DNA of 28,169 bases, from contig DATCKK010000305.1 of NCBI GenBank assembly GCA_036562325.1, forward strand, positions 1 through 28,169, given 5' to 3'. Of this stretch, positions 10,001 through 28,169 are shown in pieces. The position numbers and the translations under genes were made by a program. The stretch is from Cytophagaceae bacterium (GTDB lineage Bacteria > Bacteroidota > Bacteroidia > Cytophagales > Cytophagaceae). Every line of letters starts with the position of its first letter. Positions within the stretch are counted from its first letter, which is position 1. A model generated the notes under the pieces. That model had not been told where the DNA came from, made no database searches, and saw nothing but the letters and a program-made list of their open reading frames with translations.

Positions 10001-11673
10001 TGATATACGCGGTAATGTTCAATGATAATAATAAAGCGATTGCTTATGGGGAACAAATTCCTGAGTTATTGGAACACATAGCCGGTATCTATACCGTTCC
10101 CTTATGGAACTTCTATTATGGAATTGCTCTTGCAGAGCAAAACAAGGAAAGTGAAACTGTGAATCAATTCCTTTCCGAACTTGAACACCGGGCAACGTTT
10201 GCTCCTGAAAATTACAAGCACAAATATCTGTTGTTGTCAGCAATTGTAAAAGCACAGCGAGAATTTATCCCGAAAGAATTTGAAGAAAGTTGTGAGATTG
10301 CTGAAAAATCCGGAATAGCTATAGAAGCAGCATTTGCATATGAAAAGTTCGGAGATTATTTATTACTCAATCATAAAGACACTTATGCCTCAGGAGCATT
10401 CGTAAAAAGTATTAAATATTACACACAATGCGGTGCTGAAAATAAAGTAAAAGCGATTACTGAAAAGATCAGAAAAATAACCGGCACCATTGGCCTGTAC
10501 TCTTCCAACGATCTCTACATGTCTGCCATAAACGAGATCAACAAAACCATACTTCAGGAAATCTCTATCGATGCTCTGGTACAAAAACTTCTAACCCTTA
10601 CCATCAAAACCACAGGAGCAAATCGGGCATTGCTACTATTGAATAAAGACGAACTGTATCTGGCAGGAGAAGCTTTGGAAAAAGAATACATAGCGCATGA
10701 CATACTTTTCAGTGAGTATAAGAATTATCCGAATGAGTTTATTCGATGGGCCATATATACCGGAGAAGCAAATGCTTGGTATCATGACCAAAGTTCCATT
10801 CTAAGAGGTGAAGATTATTTTCTTTCCGCAAAAATAAAATCGGCGTATGTACAACCGTTGAAAGTGGAAAATAAAGTAATCGGCGTACTTTATATGGAAA
10901 GTGATAAAGCTTCTTTATTTTCCGATTTATCCCTGAGGATATTAAAACCATCGGTGATACAAATTGCTATCAGTATTAACAACGCCTTGCTATACGATGC
11001 TCTTCAGAAAAAAGAAAGAGCGTTAGCTAAAACTGTAGAAGAAAAAGAACAATTGCTTTCCCAACTTTCCACTACTAAGCGGCAAAACATATTGAATATA
11101 ATGCATGTGGAAGAAACGGAAAAACAGCAATTGGCCAGAGAACTTCATGATAACCTCGGGCAACAAATGGCAGCATTGAAATTGATGGTTCAGAATACTA
11201 CTTCCAACCATTCCGAACGCGTTCTTCAACTTATTGATGATATAGCTTCAGGATTAAGGAAAGTAGCCCATAACATGATGCCTAAAACCCTTGAAGAATT
11301 TGGACTGGCTGAAGCCATAGAGACGCTTGTTGAACCCATTTCCAATAGCACACTTAATATCGAATTTGATTATTTCGGAGAAAAAAGAAACAGGCTTCCT
11401 TTGGCTTTGGAACGAGCATTATACAGAATTACTCAGGAACTAATTTCCAATATTATTAAACATTCCGGTGCTACGGAAGCCTACATTCAACTTACCATTA
11501 ATGAAAACATAATACGACTGCTGATAGAAGATAATGGAAAAGGCATAGGAACTACCCGGGAAGGAATAGGATTGTTAAATATAAAAACCCGTATAGAAGC
11601 ATTTGGAGGAGAATTTTCTATGGATAACATAGAGCCTCAAGGTACACTTTCAAGCATAATAATTAATAGATAA
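7081..11673 (+). CDS. Soluble multidomain sensor: degenerate Ser/Thr-kinase C-lobe + AAA/STAND ATPase + helical region + GAF + HisKA_3/HATPase_c histidine kinase (HstK-like architecture)
   Basis: Kinase remnants RYIKPSN, IAPEETG, FYRLGIVLYHLTTGQYPF and DRYQS. Walker A GEPGIGKT (7720-7743), Walker B ILFADDLQWAD, TFGNPYF. GAF ...VIGVLYMES...QIAISINNALLY. HisKA_3 EKQQLARELHDNLGQ (His at 11146-11148). HATPase ELISNIIKHSGA, IEDNGKG, GIGLLNIKTR. No obvious membrane-spanning sensor region. Confidence 0.9.
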   Translation: MSIPKTQTPLTFHFSIEFINSFIGCLEELSSRKPGFRYIKPSNFKYEGNNITFSPIDLQEDPQCIAPEETGLLTDIPDLRAGFYRLGIVLYHLTTGQYPFYSQSPQDLVYIQVTKDPKPAKELNSKTPSALSLTIAKLLEKKPADRYQSYEGLIEDFREIADNPDIKNFVPAQKDTPSQLYFSNLLYGRGAELQQLTSALIESIKQKGIILISGEPGIGKTSIALSAFTHIVNDKALTATGKFEQLKRDAPYSGFSNIITSLIRAVVANGHDAIDSFKKDLFKACPNEINYLSLLCPEFEKIGGPIDKELNPTIIKPVLETALKAFLKTLSNRYHLILFADDLQWADPASIDLLSFITQESDINCSIIGAYRVNELSSFIATKIDSLRTNGFVQKEINLQRLKSQDLLEWIKDLTLLNTADSKILTDFIEKRTFGNPYFFRQFLQALEQHQCLIYTKGKWNFDIEKAELLDLPTDATALLLLQVNSLTEYEKQVLMAASVFGSVFNITLLKKLIEEADNLNEALHHCEQLSFIYPVYNNKNNDTITYKFAHDHLRNVFYTLMSNEQRERFHFKAGKHLEEIKVPVFEIADQYNNAPSYFNTSELRSQLATIGLEAGTKAIKNGAPQAALNYLNNADNLLSDDEWDSYYDLKLSIMMSKAEAEYLNSEYELMEAHCYQIIEHNPSAKHLLKIKELLILGFIAQGKMQEAINYGLETLASLGVSIPYSANKEDVEREFEHISKMINSKGPSEILNLPEITNWEMEAALRIVMHTGSAAYFVAQDIYPLLALKQVELSLIYGNSEVSVDAYTTYGLLLSAYAGDLAGGYAFGPLGIALREKLNAFHMEAKTANIFNGFIQHTKDPIEKTIEPLKSGFAAGMETGDIEYACYCLTFLFIHQLHTSSNYATIKPEQEKWLQVMKKLKNDQTLEMALPWHHLLLSLSSAEFDRQIAENYILQLKEGDNFIGKAYAIIAGLIYAVMFNDNNKAIAYGEQIPELLEHIAGIYTVPLWNFYYGIALAEQNKESETVNQFLSELEHRATFAPENYKHKYLLLSAIVKAQREFIPKEFEESCEIAEKSGIAIEAAFAYEKFGDYLLLNHKDTYASGAFVKSIKYYTQCGAENKVKAITEKIRKITGTIGLYSSNDLYMSAINEINKTILQEISIDALVQKLLTLTIKTTGANRALLLLNKDELYLAGEALEKEYIAHDILFSEYKNYPNEFIRWAIYTGEANAWYHDQSSILRGEDYFLSAKIKSAYVQPLKVENKVIGVLYMESDKASLFSDLSLRILKPSVIQIAISINNALLYDALQKKERALAKTVEEKEQLLSQLSTTKRQNILNIMHVEETEKQQLARELHDNLGQQMAALKLMVQNTTSNHSERVLQLIDDIASGLRKVAHNMMPKTLEEFGLAEAIETLVEPISNSTLNIEFDYFGEKRNRLPLALERALYRITQELISNIIKHSGATEAYIQLTINENIIRLLIEDNGKGIGTTREGIGLLNIKTRIEAFGGEFSMDNIEPQGTLSSIIINR

Positions 11674-12320
11674 TGAAAACAATAAAAGTAGTCATTGCAG
11701 ACGATCATCAGATAGTAGTAGATGGCCTTGTGGCTATGATAAAAGAAGCAGAAGATATTCAGGTAAGGGGCACTGCCAATAACGGCATTCAATTATTGAA
11801 TCTATTAAAGGAAAATACAGTAGATGTTGCCATTGTAGATATTGAAATGCCTGAAATGAGCGGGATTGACGTGACACGCAAAATCATGGAAGAAAACATC
11901 AATACCAAAGTATTAATCCTATCCATGTATAACGAAACTTCCCTGATCAAGCAATTAAGAATAGTAGGAGCCAAAGGATATATTTTAAAAACCATTAATA
12001 AAAATAACTTACTGGAGGCCATCAGAACCATAGCAGAAGGAAATTTTTATTTTACATCTGAAATATTGACCACCTACAATACACAACTAAACGGATATTT
12101 ACAAAGAGAAGATATTCCGGATATAAATGTACTTACCAATAGAGAGAAAGAGATCCTTCTTTTATTATCCGAAGGATTAACCATTCCGGAGATTAGCGAT
12201 AAATTATGTATAAGCCATAAAACGACAGAAACACATAAATCCAATATGATGAAAAAACTAAAAGTAAACAGTAGTTCTAAACTAATAAGAATAGCTTACA
12301 AATCAGGACTTTGCAAATAA
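11673..12320 (+). CDS. NarL/FixJ-family response regulator (REC + LuxR HTH)
   Basis: IADDHQIV, VAIVDIEMP (phospho-Asp), GYILK, and HTH LTNREKEILLLLSEG..EISDKLCISHKTTETHKSNMMKKL. TAATG 1-bp overlap with the kinase stop. Confidence 0.95.
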   Translation: MKTIKVVIADDHQIVVDGLVAMIKEAEDIQVRGTANNGIQLLNLLKENTVDVAIVDIEMPEMSGIDVTRKIMEENINTKVLILSMYNETSLIKQLRIVGAKGYILKTINKNNLLEAIRTIAEGNFYFTSEILTTYNTQLNGYLQREDIPDINVLTNREKEILLLLSEGLTIPEISDKLCISHKTTETHKSNMMKKLKVNSSSKLIRIAYKSGLCK

Positions 12321-12537: not shown

Positions 12538-13530
12538 ATGAGATTAAAAAACTACTTACTTTTATTACTTATTTTTTCATCACCCCTGATTACTTACGGA
12601 CAAGTATCTTTTAACCCCGAAGCAGTAGTCGGTTCAGACTCTAAGCTTTCCAGAACAGGAAATCTGGATGGAGATGGTAAACCTGATCTGGTATCAGGAA
12701 GCTATAGTAATGTAAGCGTATTTTTAAACATTTCTACCGATGCGCAAATTACTTCCGGGACATTTGCCAATCCGTTACAATTATCTAATAAATTCCCCTG
12801 CTGGCAGAGAAGTTTGGTATAGAAATGAAACTTATGAGATCAAATGGGCCAGCAGCAGATCAGTCAATGTTAAATTGGAATATAGTACCAATGGAGGTTC
12901 TAGCTGGTCAACAATTGCAGCTTCTGTTGTTGCATCTAATGGAACTTATTCATGGACACTATAGCATAAATGGCAGGCTGGTCTACAGAGGAAATTTTAA
13001 TTAAACCATTGTTGCTTACTGCTATATTATTAGGTACGCCCGGAAGCAATATAACGATTACGTATGAAGTTAATGAATCTACTAAATTAAGCTTTGAATA
13101 CTCCATCGATGGTGGTACAAATTGGGAAATTATAGATAGCTGGGTAAATGTCAACAATGGCCAATACACCTGGAAAGTACCTGATGTAAACTCAACCAAT
13201 TGCTTATTACGACTGTCTGACAGTTATAATAGCAGTATATTCGGTATCAGCGATGGCGAATTTACTATCTCTGCCATAACAGAGACAGATACCCCTACAA
13301 ATGAAATACTAAACGTCTTCCCTAACCCTTCAGACAATGTTATTTCAATAAACTTTGCAAGGCAAAGAGAATATGAATTGGTAGATTGGGAAGGCAATAT
13401 AATTTTCAGTGGCAAAACAAACAGCGGTACCGTTGAAAAGATAAACACCCTTGGTATTCATCCGGGTGTTTATATACTCAGACTGAAATCAGACAATAGT
13501 ATTCATACAACCAAAATAATTATTAAATAA
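12538..13530 (+). pseudogene. Fragmented T9SS-secreted protein: signal peptide + one FG-GAP/VCBS repeat + two Ig-like (SPxGGE...YSxDGGxxW type) repeats + T9SS CTD
   Basis: Three consecutive ORF pieces in alternating frames. 12538-12822: signal peptide, GNLDGDGKPDLV..VSVFLN. About 12782-12964: INSPAGREVW..YEIKW..LEYSTNGGSSW..GTYSWT, then stop. 12970-13530: FEYSIDGGTNW..GQYTWKVPD..C.LR.SD, VFPNP..GVYILRL..KIIIK. The last piece has no signal peptide. Confidence 0.75.
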
Positions 13531-13536
13531 ACTATC

Positions 13537-13575
13537 AACTTTCTTTGTTCCCATCCAGTAAGAACAAAGAAAGTT
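13537..13575. terminator. Probable bidirectional terminator between convergent transcription units
   Basis: Perfect 14-bp inverted repeat AACTTTCTTTGTTC (13537-13550) / GAACAAAGAAAGTT (13562-13575) with an 11-nt loop, between the stops at 13530 (+) and 13647 (-). Confidence 0.7.
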
Positions 13576-13646
13576 ATTATTTTCATTTTTAAATCCCATT
13601 GTTTCCAGTGAGACAATGGGATTTATTATTCACACTTTCTACTAAC

Positions 13647-14867
13647 TCAAAGTTTTCGAATTTTCTGACTACCTGCATTAAAACTACCAGAATGAGGTGT
13701 ATGAATGTATTTTGCATTAGCCCCTTTCAATTTGAAAAAGTTAAGAAACATAATCAACATTGCTCTTGGCACCTCTATTATAGCGCTCAATGTTTCTTTA
13801 GTATAAAATCGGGATGGTATAGCCAATAAAAATGTTACCGTATGTATCAGCAAAAGAGAAACCCACAATGCAGTAGACGGATAAGCGCTTATGCCTGTAA
13901 TAATATTAAATAATACAGCTAAAATACAAGTAACCAATACAACAGCCATCAACATTACTCTCGGCACTAAAGTGAACTGAAGTACCTTGTTAAACATATC
14001 AATATTCCCGTATAGGAATAAATGTTTGAATGATGCAAAAAAATACCTTCGAAGGTAAACCAACTGAGCAGAGATCCATCTCCTTCTTTGCTTCTCAAAC
14101 ACTTCTGCATTCTCAACTTTTTCATCGTAAACCATAGCATCTTCTACGTACTCAATGGTTACTTTATCGCGATTAAGCTTTACTTCCAATTCTTTATCAA
14201 ATCCTCCGACTGCATGGACAGTACTCATAACTTTTTTAAAATAACTATATTCAAAGGCCATACCCGAACCAATAAGCCCGGAACTGAATCCAAGCACACG
14301 ATGCCCTTTTCTATAAATATGATTATTTACTTCTTCACTTATCGCATCAAGTATCGCAAACTTGGTATTGATATTTTTTGCAACGCGATGTCCCTGAAGC
14401 GCCTTACAGTGGGTAGCCAGGATCACCTTATTCATCTTGCTTAAAAAAGCAGGTTCCATTATGTTATCCGCATCCAGAATAAGTGCATAATCATACTGCT
14501 CCGGCAAAACCTTCATCGCCTGATTCAGCGATTTAGCTTTGGTACTCACCTCAAAACTAACATTAATAATCCTTATCGGAAGGTCTGCAAGTTTATTTAA
14601 AGTAGCTTCTTTCAATGAGTCGGCTATAACAATTACTTCAAAAAAGTCTTTAGGATAATCCTGCTTAAGAGCCTCTTCGGCAGACTGTATAATCACCCCA
14701 TCTTCTTTATAAGAAGGAATAAACACGGCAAACTTTTTATAGCCGGGAACTTCTTCCACTTTTTTCAGTCTCCCTATTCGTCCGGCCAGAGAATAGATAA
14801 ATCCGTACAAGACACAAAATAGCAGGTATAAAAACAATCCCAATAACAGTATATGTACAATGATCAT
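13647..14867 (-). CDS. Membrane-anchored GT2 glycosyltransferase (CESA/PgaC-like motif set)
   Basis: N-terminal TM, FIPSYKE, VIADS, LDADN, GFDKEL, QRRRW and two C-terminal TM segments. ATGA overlap with the upstream gene. Confidence 0.88.
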   Translation of the reverse strand: MIIVHILLLGLFLYLLFCVLYGFIYSLAGRIGRLKKVEEVPGYKKFAVFIPSYKEDGVIIQSAEEALKQDYPKDFFEVIVIADSLKEATLNKLADLPIRIINVSFEVSTKAKSLNQAMKVLPEQYDYALILDADNIMEPAFLSKMNKVILATHCKALQGHRVAKNINTKFAILDAISEEVNNHIYRKGHRVLGFSSGLIGSGMAFEYSYFKKVMSTVHAVGGFDKELEVKLNRDKVTIEYVEDAMVYDEKVENAEVFEKQRRRWISAQLVYLRRYFFASFKHLFLYGNIDMFNKVLQFTLVPRVMLMAVVLVTCILAVLFNIITGISAYPSTALWVSLLLIHTVTFLLAIPSRFYTKETLSAIIEVPRAMLIMFLNFFKLKGANAKYIHTPHSGSFNAGSQKIRKL

Positions 14868-15790
14868 AATTGCGTAATTTTAATTGAAGGATTTTCGTGA
14901 ATATCTTTATTTACCCAGTTCCAGGTGTAACCTTTATAAAAAGCCTTTAACAAGTCAAACCGTTTTTGCAGCAAATATTTAAAAGTATTTTTTGGTACAG
15001 AAGCCAAAGAAAAAAACAACATGGAAGAAAGCAACTTTAATCCTTTTACATTCCTTCGCATAAACACCAGACGATTTCGTGTCATATAGTAAACTTTTAC
15101 AGGATTTTCCTTTCCTATCGTCATTGACTCTTTATGATAGACTACCGAAGCACCAACGTACCATATAGTATATCCTGCCCGCTTTATCCTTTCACAGAAG
15201 TCCAGTTCTTCATAATACAAGAAATAGATATCAGCCATCATTCCAATATTTTCTATCACCTTTCTTGATACCATCATAGCTGCTCCATGAGTAAAAGGCG
15301 TAGGTGAACAAAAGTTATATTGCCCCTTATCCTTTTCATTTTTACCAACAAAAGAACCTCTTCCAGTATAAGGATTTATTGATTCGCCACCTGCATATTG
15401 TATGGTATCTTTCGAGTGATAATAAATGATCTTTGACCCTACGGCCCCAATCTTATCATCAGACTCCATCTTTTCTACCAATGGCTCCAGGAAACCGGCA
15501 TCCACCTCTGTATCATTATTGAGCATTAAAAAATATTTACCTCGTGCATTGATAAAACCAAGGTTATTACCACCGGCAAAACCAAGATTTTTATCACTAC
15601 AGATAAGATTTACAAAAGGGTATTGGTCTTTAATAATGTTAGGAGATTCCAGAGATGCGTTATCAACCACCAATATTTCCAGATTAGGATAAGTTACATG
15701 CTTTAGTGATTCCAACAACTCACAGGTTACCTTTGCATTATTATAATTAATAGTGATAATAGAAACCAAAGGGTATACTTCTTTTTTCAT
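14864..15790 (-). CDS. GT2 glycosyltransferase (GT2-like-C type)
   Basis: VSIITINYN, VVDNAS, NLGFAGGNN, LNNDT, HGAAMM, FLYYEELDFC, VYHKES. Confidence 0.9.
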   Translation of the reverse strand: MKKEVYPLVSIITINYNNAKVTCELLESLKHVTYPNLEILVVDNASLESPNIIKDQYPFVNLICSDKNLGFAGGNNLGFINARGKYFLMLNNDTEVDAGFLEPLVEKMESDDKIGAVGSKIIYYHSKDTIQYAGGESINPYTGRGSFVGKNEKDKGQYNFCSPTPFTHGAAMMVSRKVIENIGMMADIYFLYYEELDFCERIKRAGYTIWYVGASVVYHKESMTIGKENPVKVYYMTRNRLVFMRRNVKGLKLLSSMLFFSLASVPKNTFKYLLQKRFDLLKAFYKGYTWNWVNKDIHENPSIKITQL

Positions 15791-15847
15791 CTTATTTAGA
15801 TAAGTAGTTGTCTGCTTTAATTAATAAGATGAATTCGGCAACTTTTG

Positions 15848-17281
15848 TTATTGCCTTAGGGAAGTGTTTTTTTCTTCATCCATAGCGGGGCCCAAAAAAA
15901 GAAAAGCAAGACTGATATAAAAACAAACAATGGTAGGCATTTGGCCAATCACCTGATTACCATAACTGGCGACAGCAATACCAAACACACCTGAATATAA
16001 TGCGATAAGCTTTTGTTTCAGATAGACATCCCTGATATTATTGATTTTCACATAGGCAATGGCTAACACTGCCAAAATAAAAAGTATATACAAAGACAAT
16101 CCTACTATGCCCATTTCGGCCCATATACGAACATACCAGCTATCAGTCGGAGTTTTTGCTAAAAATGTACCAGGACTAAATCGTTCTCCCCAATAACCTG
16201 CTGTACCAATTCCACCACCTATAGGACGCGTAGCAAGATACTCTCTGAATTTTCTTTGATTCTCCAATCGCACCTGAAAAGATGGATCTTCAGGATCAAG
16301 CGCACTTCTCATACGTTGTATTTCATATACACCCTGCCCTACATAGGTATATTTAAGCAGATAAAAACACGATCCTAAAAAAACAAGTCCCAGAATAAGT
16401 ACTTTAAAATTCTTACTCAATAATAAATAAAAAAATATACCTGAGAATACAAACATAGCCCCTCTGGTACCTGAGATGGCCATTCCATAAAAACATATAA
16501 GAGCTGCACCAAAGTAATATAGCTTTTTAAGTAGTGTATTTGTCTTTAATCCAACTATGGCTCCTACTACGGTTGAAAATGCCATAAATGCACCAAACTG
16601 TCCTGCATCGGAATAAAAAGAAAATACTCTCAGCTTACCAAAAAGCAAATGCGTTTCGGCAGCACCAGCCGCCAGCCAGGCAGTTTCTACTGCATCCAAA
16701 CCTATATGTAATTGTTTGGCTCCATATAAAGCACTAATTACACTTCCTAATAACCAAACAAAAATAAACTGGTCAAGATCTTTTTCTCTGTAAAAAACCA
16801 AAAAGACCAAAGGAATCACAAATAACATATATAGGGAAACCGACCTCACGGCATAAAACCAGGCTAATCTGCTCACTGCTTCAGGATTAAATAATTCAAG
16901 AACCGTAAACAGAAACCATATAAAGGTCAACACTACCAATACATTATTTAATCGTCCATAGTCCTTTTTGGAGCAATTAAATATTGCCGCCACTAATGTA
17001 AGTAACAATGCAAAGTCTAAGGATAAACCAAGTGGAGCACTTATATACCTGGTAATACCAATGGAAAAAAAACTTACCAGAAGTGCTAAAAAGATACCCA
17101 TTCTTGGCTTTACAAAAATTAAATAGAGTAGAGCAAAAGATACGGGAATAAAAATCAATATTCCTGCTGCCATTAACTTCCCCCAAGCTATAAATATGCC
17201 AACTCCTAAGGCTACAATTGCAAGTAAAAGGGTTATTAATAATAACTTGCCAATGTATTGAATGGAAACGATATACCTCAT
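15848..17281 (-). CDS. O-antigen ligase-like / Wzy-type polymerase membrane protein (Wzy_C)
   Basis: About 11-12 hydrophobic segments, ISGTRGA, a periplasmic loop with RLEN...RPIGGGIG, and AEMGIVG. It lies in a cluster with Wzx and Wzc-like genes. Confidence 0.8.
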   Translation of the reverse strand: MRYIVSIQYIGKLLLITLLLAIVALGVGIFIAWGKLMAAGILIFIPVSFALLYLIFVKPRMGIFLALLVSFFSIGITRYISAPLGLSLDFALLLTLVAAIFNCSKKDYGRLNNVLVVLTFIWFLFTVLELFNPEAVSRLAWFYAVRSVSLYMLFVIPLVFLVFYREKDLDQFIFVWLLGSVISALYGAKQLHIGLDAVETAWLAAGAAETHLLFGKLRVFSFYSDAGQFGAFMAFSTVVGAIVGLKTNTLLKKLYYFGAALICFYGMAISGTRGAMFVFSGIFFYLLLSKNFKVLILGLVFLGSCFYLLKYTYVGQGVYEIQRMRSALDPEDPSFQVRLENQRKFREYLATRPIGGGIGTAGYWGERFSPGTFLAKTPTDSWYVRIWAEMGIVGLSLYILFILAVLAIAYVKINNIRDVYLKQKLIALYSGVFGIAVASYGNQVIGQMPTIVCFYISLAFLFLGPAMDEEKNTSLRQ

Positions 17282-18612
17282 TTCAATATCCCTTTTGATG
17301 GTGCCAGAAAAACCAAAGACTTAGTTTCCTCCCACCCTGCCTTCAATATTCGCTTTAATGAAAAATCGATATTCCTTTTTAAAAAATAAATACCAAATAA
17401 TACGCCGGTGACAAATGTAAAAATAGAAACCATTGCTACCGACCAAACCTCTCCTATAAAATGTATTACCAATAAGTCTCCGCTTAGGTTAACAGCCAAC
17501 ATCATCATAATTTTTTGAAAATTGCGAATGGGTTTATTAATAACATCCAACGTAACACCACTATATCTGTCTATCGCCATAAATCCGGCATATATGGAAA
17601 ATACCCTGAGAATATTGGCAGCTTCGGCATATTCTCTCCCGCCCAACAGCACAACCATTGGCTCGGCGAACACAAAGCAAATCACAACAAAGGGTAATAA
17701 TAAAATAGTAGTGGTACCACTGGTTCTTTCAAAAAATGAAACCAATCCTTTCTCATCGTTTGAATTTACAAGATAAGACAATCGGGGCAGAGCTGTAGCA
17801 ACAAAGCTCCGGAGAGGAATTTCTATAATTTCAAACAACTTAAGCGGCACACTATATATAGCCACAGCTACAGGCCCTAATAAAGCACCTATTAGCAAGG
17901 TATCGGAACTACGAAGCAAATTAGCTCCTATCATTGTTCCCATACTAAACTTTCCAAAATTGAATATCTCCTGAAATTTTTCTTTGGAATAATAAGGTAA
18001 CTGATGTATTCCTGTCCAGTTGAAAACAATGCATAAAACACTGGTAATAATGTTGGATGCCAGAAAGCTATATAAGACAAATTGCAGGCCATAATGGTTA
18101 AAATAATTTATCACCAGCAAAGCAATGAATAATCCCAGCAATATTAACCGGATAAATAAAATTTTTCCGAAAGCGCTTTCTACCTGTAGTTTCCATGTAG
18201 CAAAGTTAAAAGGCAATGTTGCAAGAGAAAATATCCATATCCAATCAATAAATAACTGAAAGCCGACATTAGATATAAATCCTTCCGGAATCAGTAATCC
18301 TAAAAGACTTATCAATGACATGGACAACGAAACTGCTAAGCCTATAACCCAGGCAGTACCTGTTACTTCCTGTACGTATTTCTTGTCCTTTCCTGCTGAA
18401 AATTTGATAAGAGGAGTATGAAGCATACCTGTCCTCAATAAATCCAAAAATGTAACCAGCGTAACAAACAATACCCAACTACCAAATTCTTCTTTAGTCA
18501 ATGACCTGGCCAGTATAGCAAAACTTATAAAACCCAAAGCAGCAGCAGAACCATTGCCCAGTAAAGACAAAACATTATTATTTTGAAATAACTTTTTTAC
18601 TTTATGGATCAT
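17278..18612 (-). CDS. wzx: Oligosaccharide flippase (Wzx/MOP family)
   Basis: LARSLTKEEFG.W, multiple TM segments, DTLLIGALLGPVAVAIYSVPLKL and LLGGREYAEAANILRV, all typical of polysaccharide-synthesis flippases. Confidence 0.88.
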   Translation of the reverse strand: MIHKVKKLFQNNNVLSLLGNGSAAALGFISFAILARSLTKEEFGSWVLFVTLVTFLDLLRTGMLHTPLIKFSAGKDKKYVQEVTGTAWVIGLAVSLSMSLISLLGLLIPEGFISNVGFQLFIDWIWIFSLATLPFNFATWKLQVESAFGKILFIRLILLGLFIALLVINYFNHYGLQFVLYSFLASNIITSVLCIVFNWTGIHQLPYYSKEKFQEIFNFGKFSMGTMIGANLLRSSDTLLIGALLGPVAVAIYSVPLKLFEIIEIPLRSFVATALPRLSYLVNSNDEKGLVSFFERTSGTTTILLLPFVVICFVFAEPMVVLLGGREYAEAANILRVFSIYAGFMAIDRYSGVTLDVINKPIRNFQKIMMMLAVNLSGDLLVIHFIGEVWSVAMVSIFTFVTGVLFGIYFLKRNIDFSLKRILKAGWEETKSLVFLAPSKGILK

Positions 18613-19808
18613 GCCACCTTTTCCGGTTTTTGAGTCAATAACTTTTCAATGATTACCGAAAACTCTTTAACTCTGTTTTCCCAGGAATTCTTTCTGGCAA
18701 ACTCTACTCTTAATTTCTTTTTTTCATAATTATCTGCATACAGTTCCTCTCGCAGATAATTAAGAAACTGCTCTTTGGATTCCGCCGTTCTGACTACTTT
18801 GGTAAATTCAGGTAGTGGAGCAAAGTCTGTCATAACAACAGGCTTAGCTGCCGCGAGATATTCATTAATTTTTAACGGATATACTCCTCTTGTAACTTTT
18901 GATTTTATATAGGGAATAATGGCAACATCTACTTCCTTAAGATATTGGGGGACTTCATCAGGACGGGCACTTCCTAAAAAGATTACATTTGAAAATGGAG
19001 TTAACCTGTTTTTAGCTTCTTCGTTGGTTATTCTTCCAAGAAATCTAAATTCCACCTCTGGAAGCCGGCTAATAGTGTAAACCATTGTTTCCGTATCAAA
19101 CCGCTCATCCAAACTTCCGGTATAACCAACTACCTTCTTTTGATGGGGAGATTTAACAGTAAAATCAGCTACTGCCTGAAAATTTTCAAAATCAACGCCA
19201 TTCTTAACTACATAGCATTTTCTATGTAAATATCCCTTAGATTCATGTAGCGCATCCGATGTTGTAATTACGGCATCTGTTTTCTTTATATAATCTTCTT
19301 CTACAGAAGGCCCGTGAAAACTATACCATTGATCGCCTTTTATCTCATCGTAGCAATAATAAATATGTAACTTCTCGTTTAAATTACCTGCCAGTGTCAA
19401 TCCAAAAAATGGATTGTACCCATTCACTACCACAGGATCTTTTATACCTAAAGTCTTCATTGCCGACTGGATAGATGCTTTTACTATAAGGCCGTTAAGT
19501 TTAAGCAGGCTTCGGTAAGGTATTCTTGGCTTTATCCAGTTGACAGGCAATACAGGCGGCGGTGTAAGCACATGTACTTGCGATCCGTATTCTGTGGTGA
19601 GTGTACGCAACCTTGGTTCTAACCCTATTACTCTGCTTACAGGCACTCTGGGGTTTCGGGTGATAAGATCTTTAAGAGTATATTCATAATCTACAAATAA
19701 CACTTTATTTTCACGGCTCAGGAGAGTCATCATTTTAACCAATGTATTCAGAAACTCACTCTCCCAGGTAGATAAGGCTATACATACAAAAGTCTGGTTT
19801 TTAATCAT
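18609..19808 (-). CDS. GT4-like (GT-B) glycosyltransferase, TuaH-like
   Basis: YYCYDE, VKNGVDFENF, VGYTGSLDERFD, VAIIPY...YPLKINEYLAAAKPVV. Confidence 0.85.
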   Translation of the reverse strand: MIKNQTFVCIALSTWESEFLNTLVKMMTLLSRENKVLFVDYEYTLKDLITRNPRVPVSRVIGLEPRLRTLTTEYGSQVHVLTPPPVLPVNWIKPRIPYRSLLKLNGLIVKASIQSAMKTLGIKDPVVVNGYNPFFGLTLAGNLNEKLHIYYCYDEIKGDQWYSFHGPSVEEDYIKKTDAVITTSDALHESKGYLHRKCYVVKNGVDFENFQAVADFTVKSPHQKKVVGYTGSLDERFDTETMVYTISRLPEVEFRFLGRITNEEAKNRLTPFSNVIFLGSARPDEVPQYLKEVDVAIIPYIKSKVTRGVYPLKINEYLAAAKPVVMTDFAPLPEFTKVVRTAESKEQFLNYLREELYADNYEKKKLRVEFARKNSWENRVKEFSVIIEKLLTQKPEKVA

Positions 19809-21988
19809 ACTTCACTTCCTTTTTTACTTATAACAGATCGTTTAAAAAATTTTAATCCAGTTGATTTTTTCCGTTTGATTCCGTCCAATCCTTCAAGACG
19901 ATCCGTCTTTACTTTATTCAATACTATCAAAGGCTGGTAATTCGTAGCTTTGCTATATAAGCGTGAAATATAAATATCGGACTCTGTCCATGAACGGTCG
20001 GCTGCAATAACTATTAATGCAAGGTCCATATTACTTATCAACTCCACAGGCAATTGATGTTCTGCCAATGAAGGGATCTCCAATACAACAAACTTAAAGT
20101 CTTTTACCTGCTCTTTTTGGGGCAATAAATCATCTACCCTGGACTGATTGACAAAATTTTTATCAGGATTATAATAAAAAGGTTTTAAACATGGATGGTC
20201 TTTTACTTTCGTTTCATTCTTATCTATTTTATATGAAACAAACAAAGTATTTCCATAAATATCGCTTAACTTCTCAGCCAACTTTTGACTGACCCAACTT
20301 TTACCTTCACCAGGTTTAGCGCTGGTTAATACAATCTTTTTCGGAAAATCTAATTTCCCTCTATTATTCAACTCGATCATAATACTACTGATGGTCTGAT
20401 CTAACAGGGCTGATTCCAGTTCGTCAATAGAAGGGGTCGCATCCCTAAAAGGCAATACACCTGCTAAATGTAGTCCGGTTATTCTTTCTGCCCTTGATGG
20501 CGTTTTGATAGAAGCATCAAAAAATTCGCGGGCTACAATTCCTCCGGTCATCAGCACAACACCTACAAAAAATCCAATCATTACCAACATCATACCTTTA
20601 GAAGCATTTGGCTTTGATGGATAATAAGGCCTATCAACTACTTTCAAACTTGAAGTTAACTCTATATTTTGCTGACGTTGTTTATTAATATTTAATGCAT
20701 TCAACGCAGTCATATATTCTTTCTCAGCCACTCTCACCTCTCTTTCCAGACTTGATAAAACAGGACGAAGCGGAGCCATTTTCTCATACATTTTATCAAA
20801 CTCCTTTAGCTTTTCATTCAGCAACCTTAACCGTGCTTCACTTTCATCCATTACCAGTTTATTAGACAACCACTGATTTAATAATCCATCTCTTGGTAAG
20901 CCTTCCTGCGAGTTATTTAATCGATAAAGGTCATTCACTATTTCCTCTATTTCTTCTTTAATCAAGTCTGCTTCTTCTTTCAACTTTCGGATTTCTTCCC
21001 CCTGAATTTTATAGATCTTGGCATTCGCAATCTTATAATTCAAATCCGCCAGCTGCTTCCTTTTTAATAATATCTTTTCATTGGATTCAATAAGGCTTTT
21101 ATTTCCATCGATCTTACTTTCCAAATTTTTAATAGTGGCTTCAGATGCTGTATACAATAAATCTTCTTTCCTGATTTCTTCCAGTATCTCCTGCTTAGAC
21201 AGTGCTATTGATTTTGCTTCTTCATCGTAATTGAGTATTTTATTTTTGACACCAAAATCTCTCAATTTATTTTCTGCCTCTTTTAGCTTTTTATAACTTT
21301 CTTCTGCCTGCCGGGTAAAGTAGTTTACTACACCTATTATTTCACCTTCTTTAATTCTCCTGTATTTATTGATAAATACTTCAGACAACAATTCTAAAGT
21401 ATTCTGACAAACGCCAGGGTCTGTACATGAATAGGAAACTTCAAGCATATCACTATTTTCTCTTCGGAAAGCTTTGATATTGTCTCTGATTTGATTTATC
21501 CCATAAATAGTAGGTGATGACAATATCATATAAATATGACTGGCTCCATCTCCATTCTGATACTTCAACAAGTTTTGATATGTCTCTTCTACCGAACCTG
21601 AAACTACTATATCTTTTCGGAGATTATCAGGAAAAATATTTTTCAAAGAAATAAAAGTCTCATTACTTAATATTTTACTATCAACATTATCTAAAACCAG
21701 ATGCCTGGCCAGTAAACGCATACTTACTTCTTCCATCGTTTCTCTGGCTTTAAGCGTATTTAATAAGTTATCAAAAGCATTATTTACTGCATTATGATCC
21801 AAGCGTGGATGTTCTTCGCTGGTAATTTTAAAACCACTGGCAATACCTGTATATATTAACACAGAAGAAGAATATTCTTTAGGATCATCCTTGGTCAAAT
21901 AATAAATAGTAAATGAAACCAATGATGGAAATAACAACAGAAGTAACCAGTTTTTCTTAAGTACTCTAAGTATATCCTTTATATTCAT
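19805..21988 (-). CDS. wzc: Wzc/GumC-like polysaccharide co-polymerase with a degenerate cytoplasmic BY-kinase domain
   Basis: N-terminal TM (NWLLLLLFP..), long coiled-coil periplasmic region, VVDRPYYP before the second TM, and Walker A SAKPGEGKS (20297-20323). The Walker B region is FVVLEIPSL and there is no C-terminal Tyr cluster. Confidence 0.82.
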   Translation of the reverse strand: MNIKDILRVLKKNWLLLLLFPSLVSFTIYYLTKDDPKEYSSSVLIYTGIASGFKITSEEHPRLDHNAVNNAFDNLLNTLKARETMEEVSMRLLARHLVLDNVDSKILSNETFISLKNIFPDNLRKDIVVSGSVEETYQNLLKYQNGDGASHIYMILSSPTIYGINQIRDNIKAFRRENSDMLEVSYSCTDPGVCQNTLELLSEVFINKYRRIKEGEIIGVVNYFTRQAEESYKKLKEAENKLRDFGVKNKILNYDEEAKSIALSKQEILEEIRKEDLLYTASEATIKNLESKIDGNKSLIESNEKILLKRKQLADLNYKIANAKIYKIQGEEIRKLKEEADLIKEEIEEIVNDLYRLNNSQEGLPRDGLLNQWLSNKLVMDESEARLRLLNEKLKEFDKMYEKMAPLRPVLSSLEREVRVAEKEYMTALNALNINKQRQQNIELTSSLKVVDRPYYPSKPNASKGMMLVMIGFFVGVVLMTGGIVAREFFDASIKTPSRAERITGLHLAGVLPFRDATPSIDELESALLDQTISSIMIELNNRGKLDFPKKIVLTSAKPGEGKSWVSQKLAEKLSDIYGNTLFVSYKIDKNETKVKDHPCLKPFYYNPDKNFVNQSRVDDLLPQKEQVKDFKFVVLEIPSLAEHQLPVELISNMDLALIVIAADRSWTESDIYISRLYSKATNYQPLIVLNKVKTDRLEGLDGIKRKKSTGLKFFKRSVISKKGSEV

Positions 21989-22758
21989 TTTCGATGAATC
22001 AGTTTAGTTATTGGCACTCCCACTAAAATCTCCATTTGCAAAAACAAGGATTGAAAATTCTTTTTAGCCAGTTCATATTTCTCTTCCGAACCGATAAACA
22101 ACTGATTTAATTTGGCGTACTCTTCCAGCTTTATACTTCCTTCACGAAATTGTTTCTCCGCCATTTGTTGAAGGAGGCGGGCACTTTCCCGATTATCTGC
22201 TATCACTTTCAAAATATTCTGTGCAGCTATTAACTCCGAATAGGCTTGGGTAATTTCCCTTGCCAGATCAAGCTCCGCCATTTTTACTCTCTGAGTAGCC
22301 GCCAACAATTCTGCTTCTTCTTTCGCAAGCTTTGGCCTCCTGATGGTAAATTCACTTATAGGTATAGATACATTAATTCCATACCTGTATCCATTCAAAA
22401 AATTGCTTTGCTGTTCAGCGATACCGCTGCTTATTTGAAACTTTTGGTTTCCTGTAGCATAATTACCAAAGAGAGAAATATTCTCCTGCCAACTTCTTTT
22501 AGCAATGATAAGATCATAAGCAGAGCCTTGCTCCAGAGCTTTGTTATATTTTACATAGGGTGAATTTTTTTTTGCTATAGCGATTAAGGTATCTAATGGC
22601 GGTAGTTGATATTCCAGTTCCCCGATTTCAGTTAGATTATACTTTAAAGTATCAACTCTTAAACCGGACTGGCAATAACCCATGTTTATCATCATGAGTA
22701 ATACCAGTACGGAAAGAAGTTGTTTATATCGGTTAGGAAAATGGAATCTTTTTTTCAT
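21985..22758 (-). CDS. TolC/OEP-family outer-membrane protein, single repeat (half length)
   Basis: Signal peptide ending GYC-Q, LDTLIAIAKKNSP, beta-strands ISLFGNY and YGINVSIPI, and helices EITQAYSELIAAQ...AEKQFREG...KYELAK..LEILVG-like ending. Only 257 aa. Confidence 0.75.
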   Translation of the reverse strand: MKKRFHFPNRYKQLLSVLVLLMMINMGYCQSGLRVDTLKYNLTEIGELEYQLPPLDTLIAIAKKNSPYVKYNKALEQGSAYDLIIAKRSWQENISLFGNYATGNQKFQISSGIAEQQSNFLNGYRYGINVSIPISEFTIRRPKLAKEEAELLAATQRVKMAELDLAREITQAYSELIAAQNILKVIADNRESARLLQQMAEKQFREGSIKLEEYAKLNQLFIGSEEKYELAKKNFQSLFLQMEILVGVPITKLIHRK

Positions 22759-22779
22759 ACAAGTTCAACACCTATTATC

Positions 22780-23967
22780 TCATACATTCTCTTTTTGTAA
22801 GAGAGCAGGCACTGTTTTAACTATTATTTCAATATCTCTCCAAAATGAGTAATTCTTTGCATAGTCATTATCCAGTTGTATTCTTTCTTCCTCTGACATC
22901 GGGCCTTTTCTACCTCGTTTGGTTACCTGCCACAATCCTGTAATACCTGCAGGAGCCATAAACCGAAGTGTAAATTGATCCGTAGTAATCTTCTCTGCTT
23001 CATATAAAGGCAATGGCCTGTTTCCCACAATAGACATATCTCCCTTCAACACATTGAACAACTGAGGAAGCTCGTCTATACTGGTATTTCGGATAAACTT
23101 ACCAATTCGGGTAATACGAGGATCATTGCTTATCTTCACAAATGTTCCGCTTTCCGCTTTTTTGTTTTCCAGGTATATCTTTTCACAAACCGCATTACCA
23201 TCCAGATATAATACCGATTGGCATGGGCTGTTGTTTAATTTACAGGTTTCACAAATACCTTCTGCCTTTTGCTTCTCTTTGCCTTTACTGTAAAGATTTA
23301 AATGCGATATATCTTTCAGCTTGGCATCTGCCCCTATCGTCATGGAACGAAACTTGTAGAAGTCAAATATTTTATAACCTGTTCCTACTCTCTTAGAAGA
23401 ATAAAACACCGGCCCTTTTGACTCCAACCGAATTAAAATAGCAATGATAAGAAACACCGGCAACAGCAATATGATGGCAACTAAAGAAAACACTATATCA
23501 AAAGCACGCTTCAATACAGGCACTTTGTATACAGGCTGCCAACACACCCCGTCTCCACAACGTTTGGAGTTTTTCGAACAATAAATCAGATACTTTAGGC
23601 GAAAACAAAAATCCCGTGAATCAAAGTCAGGATCAAAGATTTCAGAAACCCCTTGACGTAATAACTCCTTTCTTACTCTGTTATCAATCTTTTCATGAAT
23701 AAAAACAAAGGGTACTTCCAATAAAGCTTCGGAAGCTCTAAGCATGGAAAGCAGCGGACTTCCGTTAGGACTATTAAATTTACCTGCCGATACAACTGCA
23801 TCTACACATCGGTGGTTTTTATTAATCCAGTCATAAAACTTAAATCCGTTTTCAAATACATATATTTCAAAATCATCTTCACATTTACTGGTGAAGTTTT
23901 TAATCTTCACAGGATCACTTTCAATATATGCAATCTTACTTTTTTCTGAAGTCAACGCGTTCGTCAT
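22780..23967 (-). CDS. Priming phosphoglycosyltransferase (Bac_transf) fused to an N-terminal pseudo-receiver domain
   Basis: KRAFDIVFSLVAIILLLPVFL, GPVFY..RVG, KFRSM, DPRITRIGKFIRNTSIDELPQLFNVLKGDMSIVGNRP, PAGITGLWQV. The first ~130 aa follow a REC pattern (IAYIE..FENG..DAVVS..PFVFI..GVSEIF). Confidence 0.88.
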   Translation of the reverse strand: MTNALTSEKSKIAYIESDPVKIKNFTSKCEDDFEIYVFENGFKFYDWINKNHRCVDAVVSAGKFNSPNGSPLLSMLRASEALLEVPFVFIHEKIDNRVRKELLRQGVSEIFDPDFDSRDFCFRLKYLIYCSKNSKRCGDGVCWQPVYKVPVLKRAFDIVFSLVAIILLLPVFLIIAILIRLESKGPVFYSSKRVGTGYKIFDFYKFRSMTIGADAKLKDISHLNLYSKGKEKQKAEGICETCKLNNSPCQSVLYLDGNAVCEKIYLENKKAESGTFVKISNDPRITRIGKFIRNTSIDELPQLFNVLKGDMSIVGNRPLPLYEAEKITTDQFTLRFMAPAGITGLWQVTKRGRKGPMSEEERIQLDNDYAKNYSFWRDIEIIVKTVPALLQKENV

Positions 23968-23976
23968 ATTATCACC

Positions 23977-24357
23977 TTACACTTTACATGTCCTTTTTAA
24001 TATATTCTCAACACGAGCCTCTAATTCCTCCGGATTAAATGGTTTTATTAAATAATCATCAGCACCTGCTTTTAAACATTGTATTCTGATATTACTATTT
24101 TCATAGCTGGACAAAATCAACAATGGTATATCTCTGAAAAAACCGCTGGAACGGATATGCTTCATAAATTCAAAACCATCCATTTCAGGCATGTGCAAAT
24201 CTGTAATTATCGCATCCGGTAAGTTTCCTTCATGTAACCACTCTAAAGCTTTCTTACCATTTTCTTGTCTAACTACATTATATTTGTATTCCAGGGTATG
24301 ATATATAACTGCTAAAGTAGAGTCTACATCATCTATGACAAGTAATGTCTTTTCCAT
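23977..24357 (-). CDS. Stand-alone CheY-like receiver-domain protein
   Basis: LLVIDD, AIITDLHMPEMDG (phospho-Asp), ILSS, GADDYLIKPF. No output domain. Confidence 0.93.
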   Translation of the reverse strand: MEKTLLVIDDVDSTLAVIYHTLEYKYNVVRQENGKKALEWLHEGNLPDAIITDLHMPEMDGFEFMKHIRSSGFFRDIPLLILSSYENSNIRIQCLKAGADDYLIKPFNPEELEARVENILKRTCKV

Positions 24358-24871
24358 CTTTCTTCACTCATTTTTATAATTACTAACCATCACTTGAAAG
24401 ACCTGTATACCTTAAATAAACCTCTTAAAAAGCCTGATTTATTAAGCTTACTCCTGAGGCTGATTTGTTAAGTTTTACACGATCCTTATATCATCTTAAC
24501 CTTCATGTTTCGTGGAATGTTTGACCATGATACAGGTCTTATGGACACTTATTTTCGCCTAAAAAAACAAATAAAATTTCTATCGGATTTTTAATAATAC
24601 TATAGTGAGTTTTGATTACCTAAAAGAATAAACAGGTATGAAAAAACAGAATAAGTTGCAGATAAGAGAGGCGCTATTCAATGAACCACCATCCTTTAAT
24701 TTTTAATAATTATTCCTTGCGGGAAAAGGAATATAAAAACACATCGGCTTTAAGTTTTCCAATTCACCCTCCGGAAGCTTATACTTTGGTGGTTAGAGTA
24801 TTAAAATCACTTAAAACTTTAAAATTTCCCTAACCCTGGCCCCGAAACTTATTAAATCTCAATATTGTTCC

Positions 24872-26386: not shown

Positions 26387-28169
26387 ATGAGAATAGGAAT
26401 ATTTTTCGGAGGACAGTCCAGGGAAAGAGAAATTTCCTTTGCAGGAGGAAGAACGGTTTATGACAACCTTAACAAAGAATTGTTTGAACCGGTACCTGTC
26501 TTTGTAGACAGCATTGGCAACTTCATTCTGCTAGACTGGCAGTATATCTATAAAGGTACTATCAGAGACTTTTATCCTCCATTTAATACAATTCCCAACT
26601 CCCCTAACGGTTTCCAGATTTATATTGAATCTCTGGGCAAACTCAGCACTCAGGAACAGGATGCCATTATTTCCAAAGTTGGAAAAAGAATCCGGCCTGA
26701 CGAGTTCGCCAATTACATGGACTTCGCTTTTCTGGCGCTTCACGGGCCATACGGAGAAGACGGAAACATACAGGGAATTCTGGAATGGTATAATATTCCT
26801 TACAGTGGGTCAGGCATATTGCCTTCGGCGATCGGAATTAACAAAATTGTCCAGAAAGGACTGATGGACAATGCCTTGTTCAAAGGCCCCAAATACACCT
26901 ATTTAAGTAAAAAAGAGTGGAAGGCTACTGAAAACAAAGCAGATATATTCTACCGTCTGGAAAGCGAACTGGGATTGCCATTTGTTGTAAAAGCACCTTA
27001 TCAGGGATCTTCTATCGGTATTTCGGTAGTTTCGGACCATGATATTCCCAATTTTATCAAGGCAGTAAACAGAAGTTTCTTCACAAAAGAAATTGACAGA
27101 AACGAGTGGCTGCAACTGGATGAGGAAAAACAGGTAGCTGCTATCAAAGAACTTACCGACATTCGCGAAGGTATAGGTATGCCGGTAATGATTGATGGTA
27201 AACAAATCAACCATCCGGAAGAACTGCTTACATACATCCGAACTACTTTCAAAACTCCTCAGCAGACTATACAAATGGAAAGTCTGGACAATGAGGAAGA
27301 AATTATTATAGAATCATTTATTCACGGCAGGGAGTTTTCATGTATCGTTATTCAGGACGAAAACGGAAATCCGATTGCGCTTCCTCCTACTGAAATTATT
27401 AAAGGAAATAAAGTTTTCGATTACAGGTCCAAATACCTGCCTGGTATGACCCGAAAACTTACTCCTATCAATTTACCTTACGAACAAATCGAAAATATCC
27501 GCAAGGAATGTGAAAGGCTTTTCAAAGAGCTGAACTTTAATGTTTACGCACGTCTGGACGGATTTATCAATCATAATGGTGAAATATTCCTGAACGACCC
27601 AAATACCACTTCCGGAATGTTGCCATCCTCTTTCTTCTTCCATCAGGCAGCAGAAATTGGAATGAACCCGTCCCAATTCCTGACCTATATCATCAGGACA
27701 TCTATTTCTGAAAGAATAAGAACAGGAAAGAAAACCTTTGCACTAAAACAATTACTCAAAAATCTGGATGATAATCTTCAAAAACTGAAAGCCAAAGAGT
27801 CTGAGAAAATCAGAGTGGGTGTGATTATGGGAGGTTATTCATCAGAAAGACATATTTCCGTAAAGAGTGGAAGAAATATCTATGAAAAACTTTCTTCCAG
27901 TACCAAGTACGAGCCTGTTCCGATCTTCCTTACCGGAAGCAACGAAGATCATCAGCTATATTTAATTCCGGTGAATATTATGCTGAAGGACAATGCAGAT
28001 GACATTAGGGAAAAAGTAGTAAGAGCAGAACCTAAGCATCCTATTCTTGGAAAAATAATTGAAGAAGCCGGAGCTATTACCGGTAAATATGTATCCAATG
28101 CCATTCACGAAGCAGTAAGAATTTCCTACGCTGAACTGGCAGAGAAAGTAGATGCAGTATTTATTGCAC
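26387..28169 (+). CDS. ddl: D-alanine--D-alanine ligase with tandem duplicated ligase modules, 3'-truncated (absent from the ORF track because the window has no stop for it)
   Basis: I translated it by hand from ATG 26387 with no stop to the window end. Module 1: MRIGIFFGGQSREREISF, LALHGPYGEDG, GSSIGIS, FDYRSKY, ARLDG, NDPNTTSGM. A second module starts at 27809: IRVGVIMGGYSSERHISV...AVFIAL. Confidence 0.92.
   Translation, partial: MRIGIFFGGQSREREISFAGGRTVYDNLNKELFEPVPVFVDSIGNFILLDWQYIYKGTIRDFYPPFNTIPNSPNGFQIYIESLGKLSTQEQDAIISKVGKRIRPDEFANYMDFAFLALHGPYGEDGNIQGILEWYNIPYSGSGILPSAIGINKIVQKGLMDNALFKGPKYTYLSKKEWKATENKADIFYRLESELGLPFVVKAPYQGSSIGISVVSDHDIPNFIKAVNRSFFTKEIDRNEWLQLDEEKQVAAIKELTDIREGIGMPVMIDGKQINHPEELLTYIRTTFKTPQQTIQMESLDNEEEIIIESFIHGREFSCIVIQDENGNPIALPPTEIIKGNKVFDYRSKYLPGMTRKLTPINLPYEQIENIRKECERLFKELNFNVYARLDGFINHNGEIFLNDPNTTSGMLPSSFFFHQAAEIGMNPSQFLTYIIRTSISERIRTGKKTFALKQLLKNLDDNLQKLKAKESEKIRVGVIMGGYSSERHISVKSGRNIYEKLSSSTKYEPVPIFLTGSNEDHQLYLIPVNIMLKDNADDIREKVVRAEPKHPILGKIIEEAGAITGKYVSNAIHEAVRISYAELAEKVDAVFIA

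Follow-up and report, generated by a model that had tools for sequence, protein, structure and literature searches.

A Wzx/Wzy-type polysaccharide operon of Bacteroidia that pairs a half-size TolC-like protein with a Wzc-like co-polymerase

A stretch of 28,169 nucleotides from a Cytophagaceae bacterium (GenBank assembly GCA_036562325.1, contig DATCKK010000305.1, positions 1 to 28,169; hereafter the window) carries a polysaccharide operon in which a half-size TolC-like protein, here called the half-OEP after the Pfam family OEP, is encoded directly upstream of a Wzc-like polysaccharide co-polymerase (PCP). The source is a metagenome-assembled genome (MAG), 78% complete and in 693 contigs, of which the window is contig C265. 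Nine co-directional open reading frames (ORFs) on the minus strand span positions 24357 to 13647 (Table 1) and encode, in this order, a receiver (REC), a priming phosphoglycosyltransferase (PGT), the half-OEP, the PCP, a GT4 glycosyltransferase, Wzx, Wzy and two GT2 glycosyltransferases. Four-base ATGA overlaps join OEP/PCP, PCP/GT4, GT4/Wzx, Wzx/Wzy and GT2a/GT2b, and the remaining intergenic gaps are 9, 21 and 57 bp. Past the last stop lie tandem hairpins at 13625–13595 and 13576–13536 (z = −6.9), and none of 200 shuffles folded as well. Proteins were assigned to domains with Pfam and NCBIfam, which gave no match to Poly_export, LMWPc or CpsB in any of the nine operon proteins, and Rfam gave no RNA family match within the window. 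The original prediction, made from the sequence, had described nine co-directional genes with five ATGA overlaps, a strong closing hairpin and neither Wza/outer-membrane polysaccharide export (OPX) nor Wzb genes; our reading of ORFs and junctions agreed with it to the base, the same genes were lacking, and the hairpin proved to be two.

Table 1. Coordinates of the operon genes and terminator-like hairpins in the window
Feature	Position	Strand	Evidence or remark
Stand-alone canonical receiver, single-domain response regulator, 126 aa	23977..24357	-	Pfam Response_reg 3.1e-26
Priming PGT with N-terminal pseudo-receiver and 4-Cys insert	22780..23967	-	Bac_transf 2.8e-62
Half-size TolC-like outer-membrane protein, 257 aa, signal peptide	21985..22758	-	Single Pfam OEP repeat
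PCP-2a (Wzc)-like co-polymerase, 727 aa, degenerate bacterial tyrosine (BY)-kinase-like domain	19805..21988	-	Wzz and GNVR below Pfam cut-offs; AlphaFold2 (AF2)/Foldseek
GT4 glycosyltransferase, TuaH-like	18609..19808	-	Glyco_trans_1_4 6.3e-11; NF047676 TuaH 7.8e-28, below cut-off; syntenic in relatives
Wzx-type MOP flippase	17278..18612	-	Polysacc_synt_3 1.5e-20; Polysacc_synt 3.5e-14
Wzy-type polymerase (Wzy_C / O-antigen ligase family)	15848..17281	-	PF04932 1.4e-12, 48.1 bits against cut-off 31.7
GT2 glycosyltransferase	14864..15790	-	Glycos_transf_2 4.1e-26
Membrane GT2 glycosyltransferase, EpsU-like	13647..14867	-	Glyco_tranf_2_3 2.6e-20; NF041865 EpsU 1.6e-20, below cut-off
Two tandem terminator-like hairpins	13536..13625	-	Past the operon's last stop; convergent gene opposite; minimum free energy −40.8 kcal/mol

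The half-OEP scored 73 bits with PF02321 (cut-off 22; E 3.6e-20) in a single stretch, residues 55–247 aligning to profile positions 1–187. Its AF2 model, built from an 18-sequence alignment (pLDDT 81.8), consisted of a 27-residue helix, a beta-hairpin, a 73-residue helix and a 36-residue return helix, in that order. The best Foldseek matches of the model were OprM, CmeC, VceC, CusC and TolC, with a probability of 1.00 for OprM, CmeC, VceC and TolC, and the alignments took in about 200 columns, or about half of each target (TMq about 0.6, TMt about 0.35). The modelled fold is that of one TolC repeat, so that the half-length TolC of the original prediction was borne out by both the single OEP repeat and the model. 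Two tandem OEP repeats per protomer, as in outer-membrane factors (OMFs), were absent: the protein has one Pfam stretch, one beta-hairpin, and one long and two half helices. The strands retained conserved G-N-Y and N-G-Y-R-x-G motifs, which are typical of a barrel hairpin. At 1.5 Å per residue, and as an estimate only, the 73-residue helix would measure about 110 Å; the TolC tunnel is roughly 100 Å long, and helices of the estimated lengths would be compatible with an assembly that spans the periplasm.

Reduced size characterizes the whole half-OEP family. An exhaustive profile search, which gave the family counts reported here (a word-based protein search returned 8 relatives), found 283 clusters (50% identity) at E ≤ 1e-30. 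Among the 150 best family members, 147 were 216–322 aa long with one matched stretch, a consistency arguing that the short OEP is a real family and not a fragment; the other three, of 125–189 aa, matched part of the profile only. An independent metagenome run from another study covered positions 13500–24500 at 99% identity or more, and because one of its contigs bridged the OEP/PCP junction, the short gene is not an assembly artefact. On these two grounds, the steady length over hundreds of clusters and the independent contig, we rejected the possibility of a fragment or frameshift. In the ESM Atlas, the neighbours of the half-OEP were clusters of 240–256 aa that bear the label 'TolC family protein' and are most frequent in Bacteroidota, and in an evenly drawn phylum sample half-size OEP frames occurred in the same class only. 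Near-identical DNA to the window was present in soil, fertilizer and compost metagenomes.

The product of the next gene resembled Wzc in its predicted structure. The AF2 model of the co-polymerase (pLDDT 80.9) comprised a first transmembrane helix (TMH1), an alpha/beta base, periplasmic helices of 58, 68, 29, 36 and 38 residues, TMH2 and a C-terminal P-loop fold; in this model and in Foldseek comparisons it showed the PCP-2a architecture of two TMHs around a periplasmic helical domain, followed by a P-loop domain. As a whole, the model matched Escherichia coli Wzc (9r68 and 7nhr; E = 1e-17 to 1e-15), the 2026 Wza–Wzc complexes among the matches, and its C-terminal domain matched the kinase domains of CapAB, BceF, Wzc and Etk (TMt about 0.6); a sequence search of the PDB with the same protein returned a chance match only. 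The Walker A motif reads AKPGEGKS, and its G562 and K563 were kept in 58 of 60 orthologues. Where the canonical Wzc of the same genome has LLDLDMRKP and IFIDTPP, the window protein has LFVSYKIDK and VVLEIPS: the DxD of Walker A′ is absent, and the Walker B Asp is replaced by Glu, which was conserved in 52 of 60. The last 40 residues contain no Tyr in the window protein and 0–2 in 58 of the 60 orthologues, compared with 6–10 in 17 of 18 canonical Wzc proteins of the same genomes, as expected from the original prediction of a Wzc-like protein without a Tyr cluster. Judged by these motifs, the co-polymerase would be unable to run a Tyr cycle. We rejected a complete loss of nucleotide binding, since GK[ST] was kept in 58 of 60 aligned sequences; the protein retains the P-loop Lys, which corrects a first reading. 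Separately, Bacteroidales/Lentimicrobiaceae MAGs, and a few others whose label is just Bacteroidetes or Bacteroidota, encode co-polymerases of this family with 930–990 aa, about 200–250 aa longer than those of the window's clade (loci L041, L046–L048, L050, L053, L056, L060–L062, L064, L066, L067, L069, L072, L078, L079, L098 and L100).

The half-OEP and co-polymerase genes were found together across the class. Profile searches placed the half-OEP gene directly upstream of the PCP gene for 57 of 60 full-length PCPs; the distance between the two genes was −23 to +33 bp, mostly −4 or −1. Among 40 relatives, 15 had a PCP at E ≤ 1e-30 and the half-OEP adjoined it in all 15; in ten of 15 loci fetched from relatives of the same family and order, the order REC-PGT-OEP-PCP-GT4-Wzx-Wzy-GT2-GT2 was complete or nearly so. 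The same order was widespread in a further 80 PGT-anchored loci from named records, which covered several orders of Bacteroidia: Chitinophagales (Lacibacter, Ferruginibacter, Sediminibacterium), Cytophagales (Cyclobacterium, Sabulibacter), Sphingobacteriales, Flavobacteriales (Owenweeksia, Thermaurantimonas) and Bacteroidales/Lentimicrobiaceae MAGs. The half-TolC and the Wzc-like family form a near-obligate, translationally coupled pair, and the operon represents a Wzx/Wzy gene set that is conserved in the class Bacteroidia, with a patchy distribution. A survey of neighbourhoods across Bacteroidota for the short TolC and Wzc-like genes without OPX, which the original prediction had put forward as its check, was strongly positive, both in the pairing and in the absence of OPX from the loci. 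The half-OEP gene directly followed Wzy at L133 (genome G047), L134 (G151) and L025, and followed the PCP gene itself at L029.

At the start of the operon, the stand-alone receiver that had been predicted was a canonical REC, with D10 kept in 85, D53 in 86, S83 in 86 and K105 in all of 87 orthologues. In 87 of 91 loci its gene immediately preceded that of the PGT; three exceptions lie at or near contig ends (L026, L057, L076), and the fourth (L028) has its REC about 2 kb upstream. The PGT (Bac_transf PF02397, 209.9 bits) has a small monotopic core at residues ~153–395 with one hydrophobic helix at ~155–180, and the catalytic dyad D298/E299 of its SIDELPQ motif was invariant in aligned orthologues. 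About 150 extra N-terminal residues contain a further domain (residues ~10–130) that had no Pfam match at E ≤ 0.01 and matched the neighbouring REC in BLASTP at E = 1e-5. In the window the phospho-accepting Asp of this domain is replaced by Ala61 and the conserved Lys by Pro110; over 87 sequences (86 orthologues and the window) the phosphorylation site was E in 33, Q in 19, A in 8 and D in 7, and the Lys was present in none. By these substitutions the domain is a pseudo-receiver, and a working receiver was rejected because the phospho-Asp and Lys are lost. The expected receiver-fused priming transferase therefore held as to the fusion but not as to the function of a phospho-acceptor, and any Asp phosphorylation would act through the separate REC. 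Within Bac_transf, an insert of about 60 aa carries four Cys at about residues 231–260, spaced C-x2-C-x6-C-x12-C and conserved in 8 of 9 aligned orthologues, and may be a zinc-binding element in a small monotopic PGT (monoPGT). Directly upstream of REC-PGT, some relatives encode hybrid His-kinases (HisKA-HATPase-REC, one with Hpt; L041:8197-9405, L092:7165-9105 and L095:5876-8839) and others sigma54 NtrC-type regulators (L033:8214-9590 and L054:7821-9173), which are candidate phosphodonors or transcriptional regulators.

These data allow us to propose that the operon encodes an accessory Wzx/Wzy-dependent exopolysaccharide (EPS) pathway of Bacteroidia that exports its product through the half-TolC, a reading that we consider rather probable. 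A kinase or phosphorelay would phosphorylate the stand-alone receiver, and the phosphorylated REC would bind the pseudo-receiver of the PGT and switch initiation of the repeat unit on or off through a REC/pseudo-REC contact, akin to the action of EpsW~P on EpsZ. We count the canonical REC next to the PGT, together with the pseudo-REC of the PGT, as support for such receiver control of initiation. Three glycosyltransferases would finish the lipid-linked repeat, with no need for dedicated sugar-nucleotide genes; Wzx would flip it and Wzy polymerize it. The Wzc-like co-polymerase would form a periplasmic cage, and its cytoplasmic P-loop domain would bind nucleotide with no Tyr autophosphorylation cycle. 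The polymer would then leave through a homo-oligomer of the single-repeat TolC-like protein, made 1:1 with the co-polymerase, as the translational coupling suggests, docked on it, and filling the role that OPX plays in OPX–Wzc pairs. At least six copies would be needed for a TolC-like barrel, since six rebuild TolC, and eight would match the Wzc-type octamer. PF04932, the family of the Wzy-type protein, spans both Wzy polymerases and WaaL-type ligases, and so the glycan might be not a free EPS but a chain resembling O-antigen that the Wzy_C-family protein attaches to lipid or protein; the half-OEP would then have no part in export. We regard this as very improbable: export machines, and not ligation pathways, typically have a PCP-2a-type co-polymerase whose periplasmic cage is long, together with a gene for an outer-membrane partner, and a Wzx flippase is also encoded in the operon.

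Export through the half-OEP has next to be set against the OPX proteins of the same genomes. With an OPX hidden Markov model (HMM) that was built from the OPX genes of cluster-bearing genomes and recovered 20 of 20 positive controls, no match was found in the window or in 95 cluster loci (15 from relatives and the 80 PGT-anchored), covering about 10 kb around each, nor in four more distant loci. The single Poly_export gene of the source genome lies on another contig, in a locus encoding an OPX (258 aa), a Wzc with a Tyr cluster (807 aa) and a CpsB phosphatase. Elsewhere, 39 of the 40 relatives carry one to five OPX genes, whereas the exception, a genome of 1 Mb, yielded neither of the two cluster genes; the five further half-OEP carriers all had OPX as well. 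In ten cluster-bearing genomes, 18 of 20 OPX genes stand immediately upstream of their own Tyr-rich Wzc; the other two are a gene at a contig end and one for an OPX-type protein of about 800 aa, and no spare, orphan small OPX gene was evident among the 20. As the OPX genes elsewhere sit with their own Wzc, the half-OEP gene holds the position of OPX beside the co-polymerase. Poly_export proteins of about 800 aa occur in G008 (C1:2196288; L116:5503-7917) and G035; at L116 there is no adjacent Wzc, and these large frames were the only OPX-type genes seen unpaired with Wzc.

Several observations weigh against export through the half-OEP. First, at least one OPX was present elsewhere in all 44 cluster-related genomes tested, and no OPX-free cluster-bearing genome was found among the 40 relatives and five further carriers. 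An OPX from another locus, with or without a beta-barrel partner, could then export the polymer in trans, the half-OEP serving to stabilize or gate the co-polymerase or to export a small molecule or lipid-linked by-product. The one to five Poly_export genes in every cluster-bearing genome favour this explanation, as do the ~800-aa OPX-type frames of G008 and G035, of which the one that was fetched (G008, L116) lacks an adjacent Wzc. We nonetheless judge it unlikely, because no orphan turned up among the small OPX genes (18 of the 20 had their own Wzc alongside; of the other two, one lay at a contig end and one was of the large type), the 95 cluster loci had no OPX in the surrounding 10 kb or so, and the strict OEP–PCP coupling mirrors that of OPX and Wzc.

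Second, the AF2 folds are of monomers, and the extracellular loop of the half-OEP (residues 102–122) was poorly modelled. In more distant Bacteroidia the half-OEP gene lies in Wzx/Wzy/PCP clusters but after Wzy, and it also occurs outside any PCP/Wzy context at L131:10018-10812 (G111), where it stands between a DUF6794 gene and tyrosyl-tRNA synthetase, and at L135:10009-10758 (G107); from these orphans, the single-repeat family is not confined to EPS loci. An ESM Atlas cluster of 627-aa proteins (Acyl_transf_3 in 100%, OEP in 16%) aligned structurally with the half-OEP over 198 residues and may represent a fusion of a polysaccharide O-acyltransferase to a half-OEP-like domain; an OEP-like region fused to an inner-membrane acyltransferase hints that the fold is perhaps not always an outer-membrane channel. 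A search for expression data turned up nothing usable: two 'metatranscriptomic' runs are probably DNA and gave scattered small contigs.

The half-OEP might not be self-sufficient, and might combine with a full-length TolC/OMF or some other outer-membrane protein into a hetero-oligomer, or serve in the periplasm as a helical spacer held by a small membrane anchor. The canonical trimer cannot be made from one repeat, full-length OMFs are present in the same genomes as the half-OEP, and the orphan half-OEPs and the possible acyltransferase fusion fit such a role. Across the relatives' loci that were compared, however, no second outer-membrane protein gene was conserved in the cluster; a single-repeat homo-oligomer is the simplest route to the TolC architecture, and the barrel-hairpin motifs of the strands have been kept. 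We therefore hold a hetero-oligomer or spacer to be distinctly unlikely, and retain export through a half-OEP homo-oligomer as the preferred reading.

The operon shares much with known systems and departs from each of them. Like the Wza–Wzc pathways of E. coli (group 1 capsule, colanic acid), it encodes a PGT, glycosyltransferases, Wzx, Wzy and a PCP-2a protein, with the partner gene directly upstream of the PCP gene; unlike them, it has a partner of the TolC (OEP) fold instead of Poly_export/SLBB, and lacks the Tyr cluster, the Walker A′ DxD and a phosphatase gene. With the TolC/OprM factors of tripartite efflux and type I secretion, the half-OEP shares its fold and the PF02321 family. A single repeat, on the other hand, means that a trimer cannot close a 12-stranded barrel, and the half-OEP has no equatorial domain. 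Its partner also differs: whereas OMFs work with a membrane fusion protein (MFP) and an inner-membrane pump of the resistance-nodulation-division (RND), ATP-binding cassette (ABC) or major facilitator superfamily (MFS) type, the gene beside the half-OEP encodes a polysaccharide co-polymerase, and Pfam found no HlyD/MFP, RND or ABC genes among those of the operon.

In Myxococcus xanthus, EpsW~P, a single-domain response regulator of the EPS locus, acts on the priming PGT EpsZ (PMC12802240), and a bioinformatic survey, as it is cited there, notes receiver domains fused to small monoPGTs. The original prediction had proposed control at initiation by an Asp phosphorelay and knew of no mechanistic description; EpsW–EpsZ already provides one for receiver control of a priming PGT, and for the half-TolC arrangement we likewise found no paper. 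Scores against the Myxococcus equivalogs of NCBIfam were far below the cut-offs (72 against 200 for EpsW, 167 against 800 for EpsZ and 73.5 against 700 for EpsU), and by this measure the REC, PGT and GT2 of the operon are analogues, not orthologues, of EpsW, EpsZ and EpsU. The PGT, unlike EpsZ, which is a large monoPGT without the beta-hairpin, is small and monotopic with a fused pseudo-receiver. Myxococcus exports its EPS through the OPX protein EpsY and the beta-barrel EpsX, whereas the operon has no OPX. Composite translocons of class-3 OPX and beta-barrel proteins are a precedent for Wzx/Wzy pathways whose outer-membrane pore is not the Wza helix barrel (PMC9603273; PMC12819527); the operon differs from these as well, having no OPX and an outer-membrane protein that is TolC-like and not a PgaA/BcsC-like barrel. 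EcpK of M. xanthus is reported to be a BY pseudokinase that backs EPS synthesis without Tyr phosphorylation (PMC12004946); it is named there as a distinct protein, whereas the degenerate domain of the operon is part of the PCP itself and has retained the P-loop Lys.

No description of a TolC-like exporter at a Wzx/Wzy locus or of a single-repeat TolC was found in the literature, although most subscription journals lay outside the coverage, so that this absence is not proof; a Mucilaginibacter fitness paper makes no mention of these genes. The pathway is a variant of the Wzx/Wzy-dependent kind, and its most novel element is the pair of half-TolC and co-polymerase.

Upstream of the operon lies a divergent housekeeping gene, and flanking genes bear C-terminal sorting domains of type IX secretion systems (T9SS), which mark the genome as one of Bacteroidota. 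They include a T9SS cargo of more than 1967 aa (positions 3–5906) with a Kelch propeller, three Malectin and Ig-like domains and a sorting tail, followed by a 299-aa Malectin protein with a T9SS tail (5958–6857). At 7081–12320, about 1.3 kb past the end of the operon and flanked by T9SS cargo genes, an AAA_16/STAND-like NTPase of 1530 aa, which also contains GAF, HisKA_3 and HATPase domains, forms a coupled pair with a NarL-type regulator; there was no evidence of a tie between this pair and the operon receiver. An ORF at 26387–28168 that runs off the window end resembles D-Ala-D-Ala ligase (Ddl); it has two stretches each of the N-domain and the C-domain, and is possibly a Ddl in tandem or fused form.

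In current models, the route of polysaccharides across the outer membrane is either an OPX protein, by itself or together with a beta-barrel, or a synthase-linked barrel. In its most specific form, which we advance as plausible but still somewhat doubtful, our proposal is that the operon encodes a third, OPX-independent kind of outer-membrane translocon: a duct of single-repeat TolC subunits, perhaps a 16-strand octamer in one-to-one match with the Wzc-type octamer, that stands tip-to-tip on a kinase-dead co-polymerase, with throughput set at priming by a phospho-receiver and a pseudo-receiver in place of Tyr cycling, and that would be an extant TolC fold in unduplicated form. If this is true, a TolC-fold duct on a co-polymerase would be a new exporter class that ties the architecture of efflux and type I secretion to glycan secretion, and would offer a natural single-repeat TolC for the study of how the fold assembles. 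Control of priming transferases by response regulators, so far demonstrated in Myxococcus, would extend to small monotopic PGTs by way of a pseudo-receiver. Several carriers are in culture, with Sabulibacter ruber, Cyclobacterium salsum, C. plantarum and Sediminibacterium ginsengisoli as candidates, which makes the hypothesis directly testable. Bacteroidia of soil, compost, freshwater and anaerobic habitats commonly have the system, and in them biofilms and aggregates are shaped by EPS.

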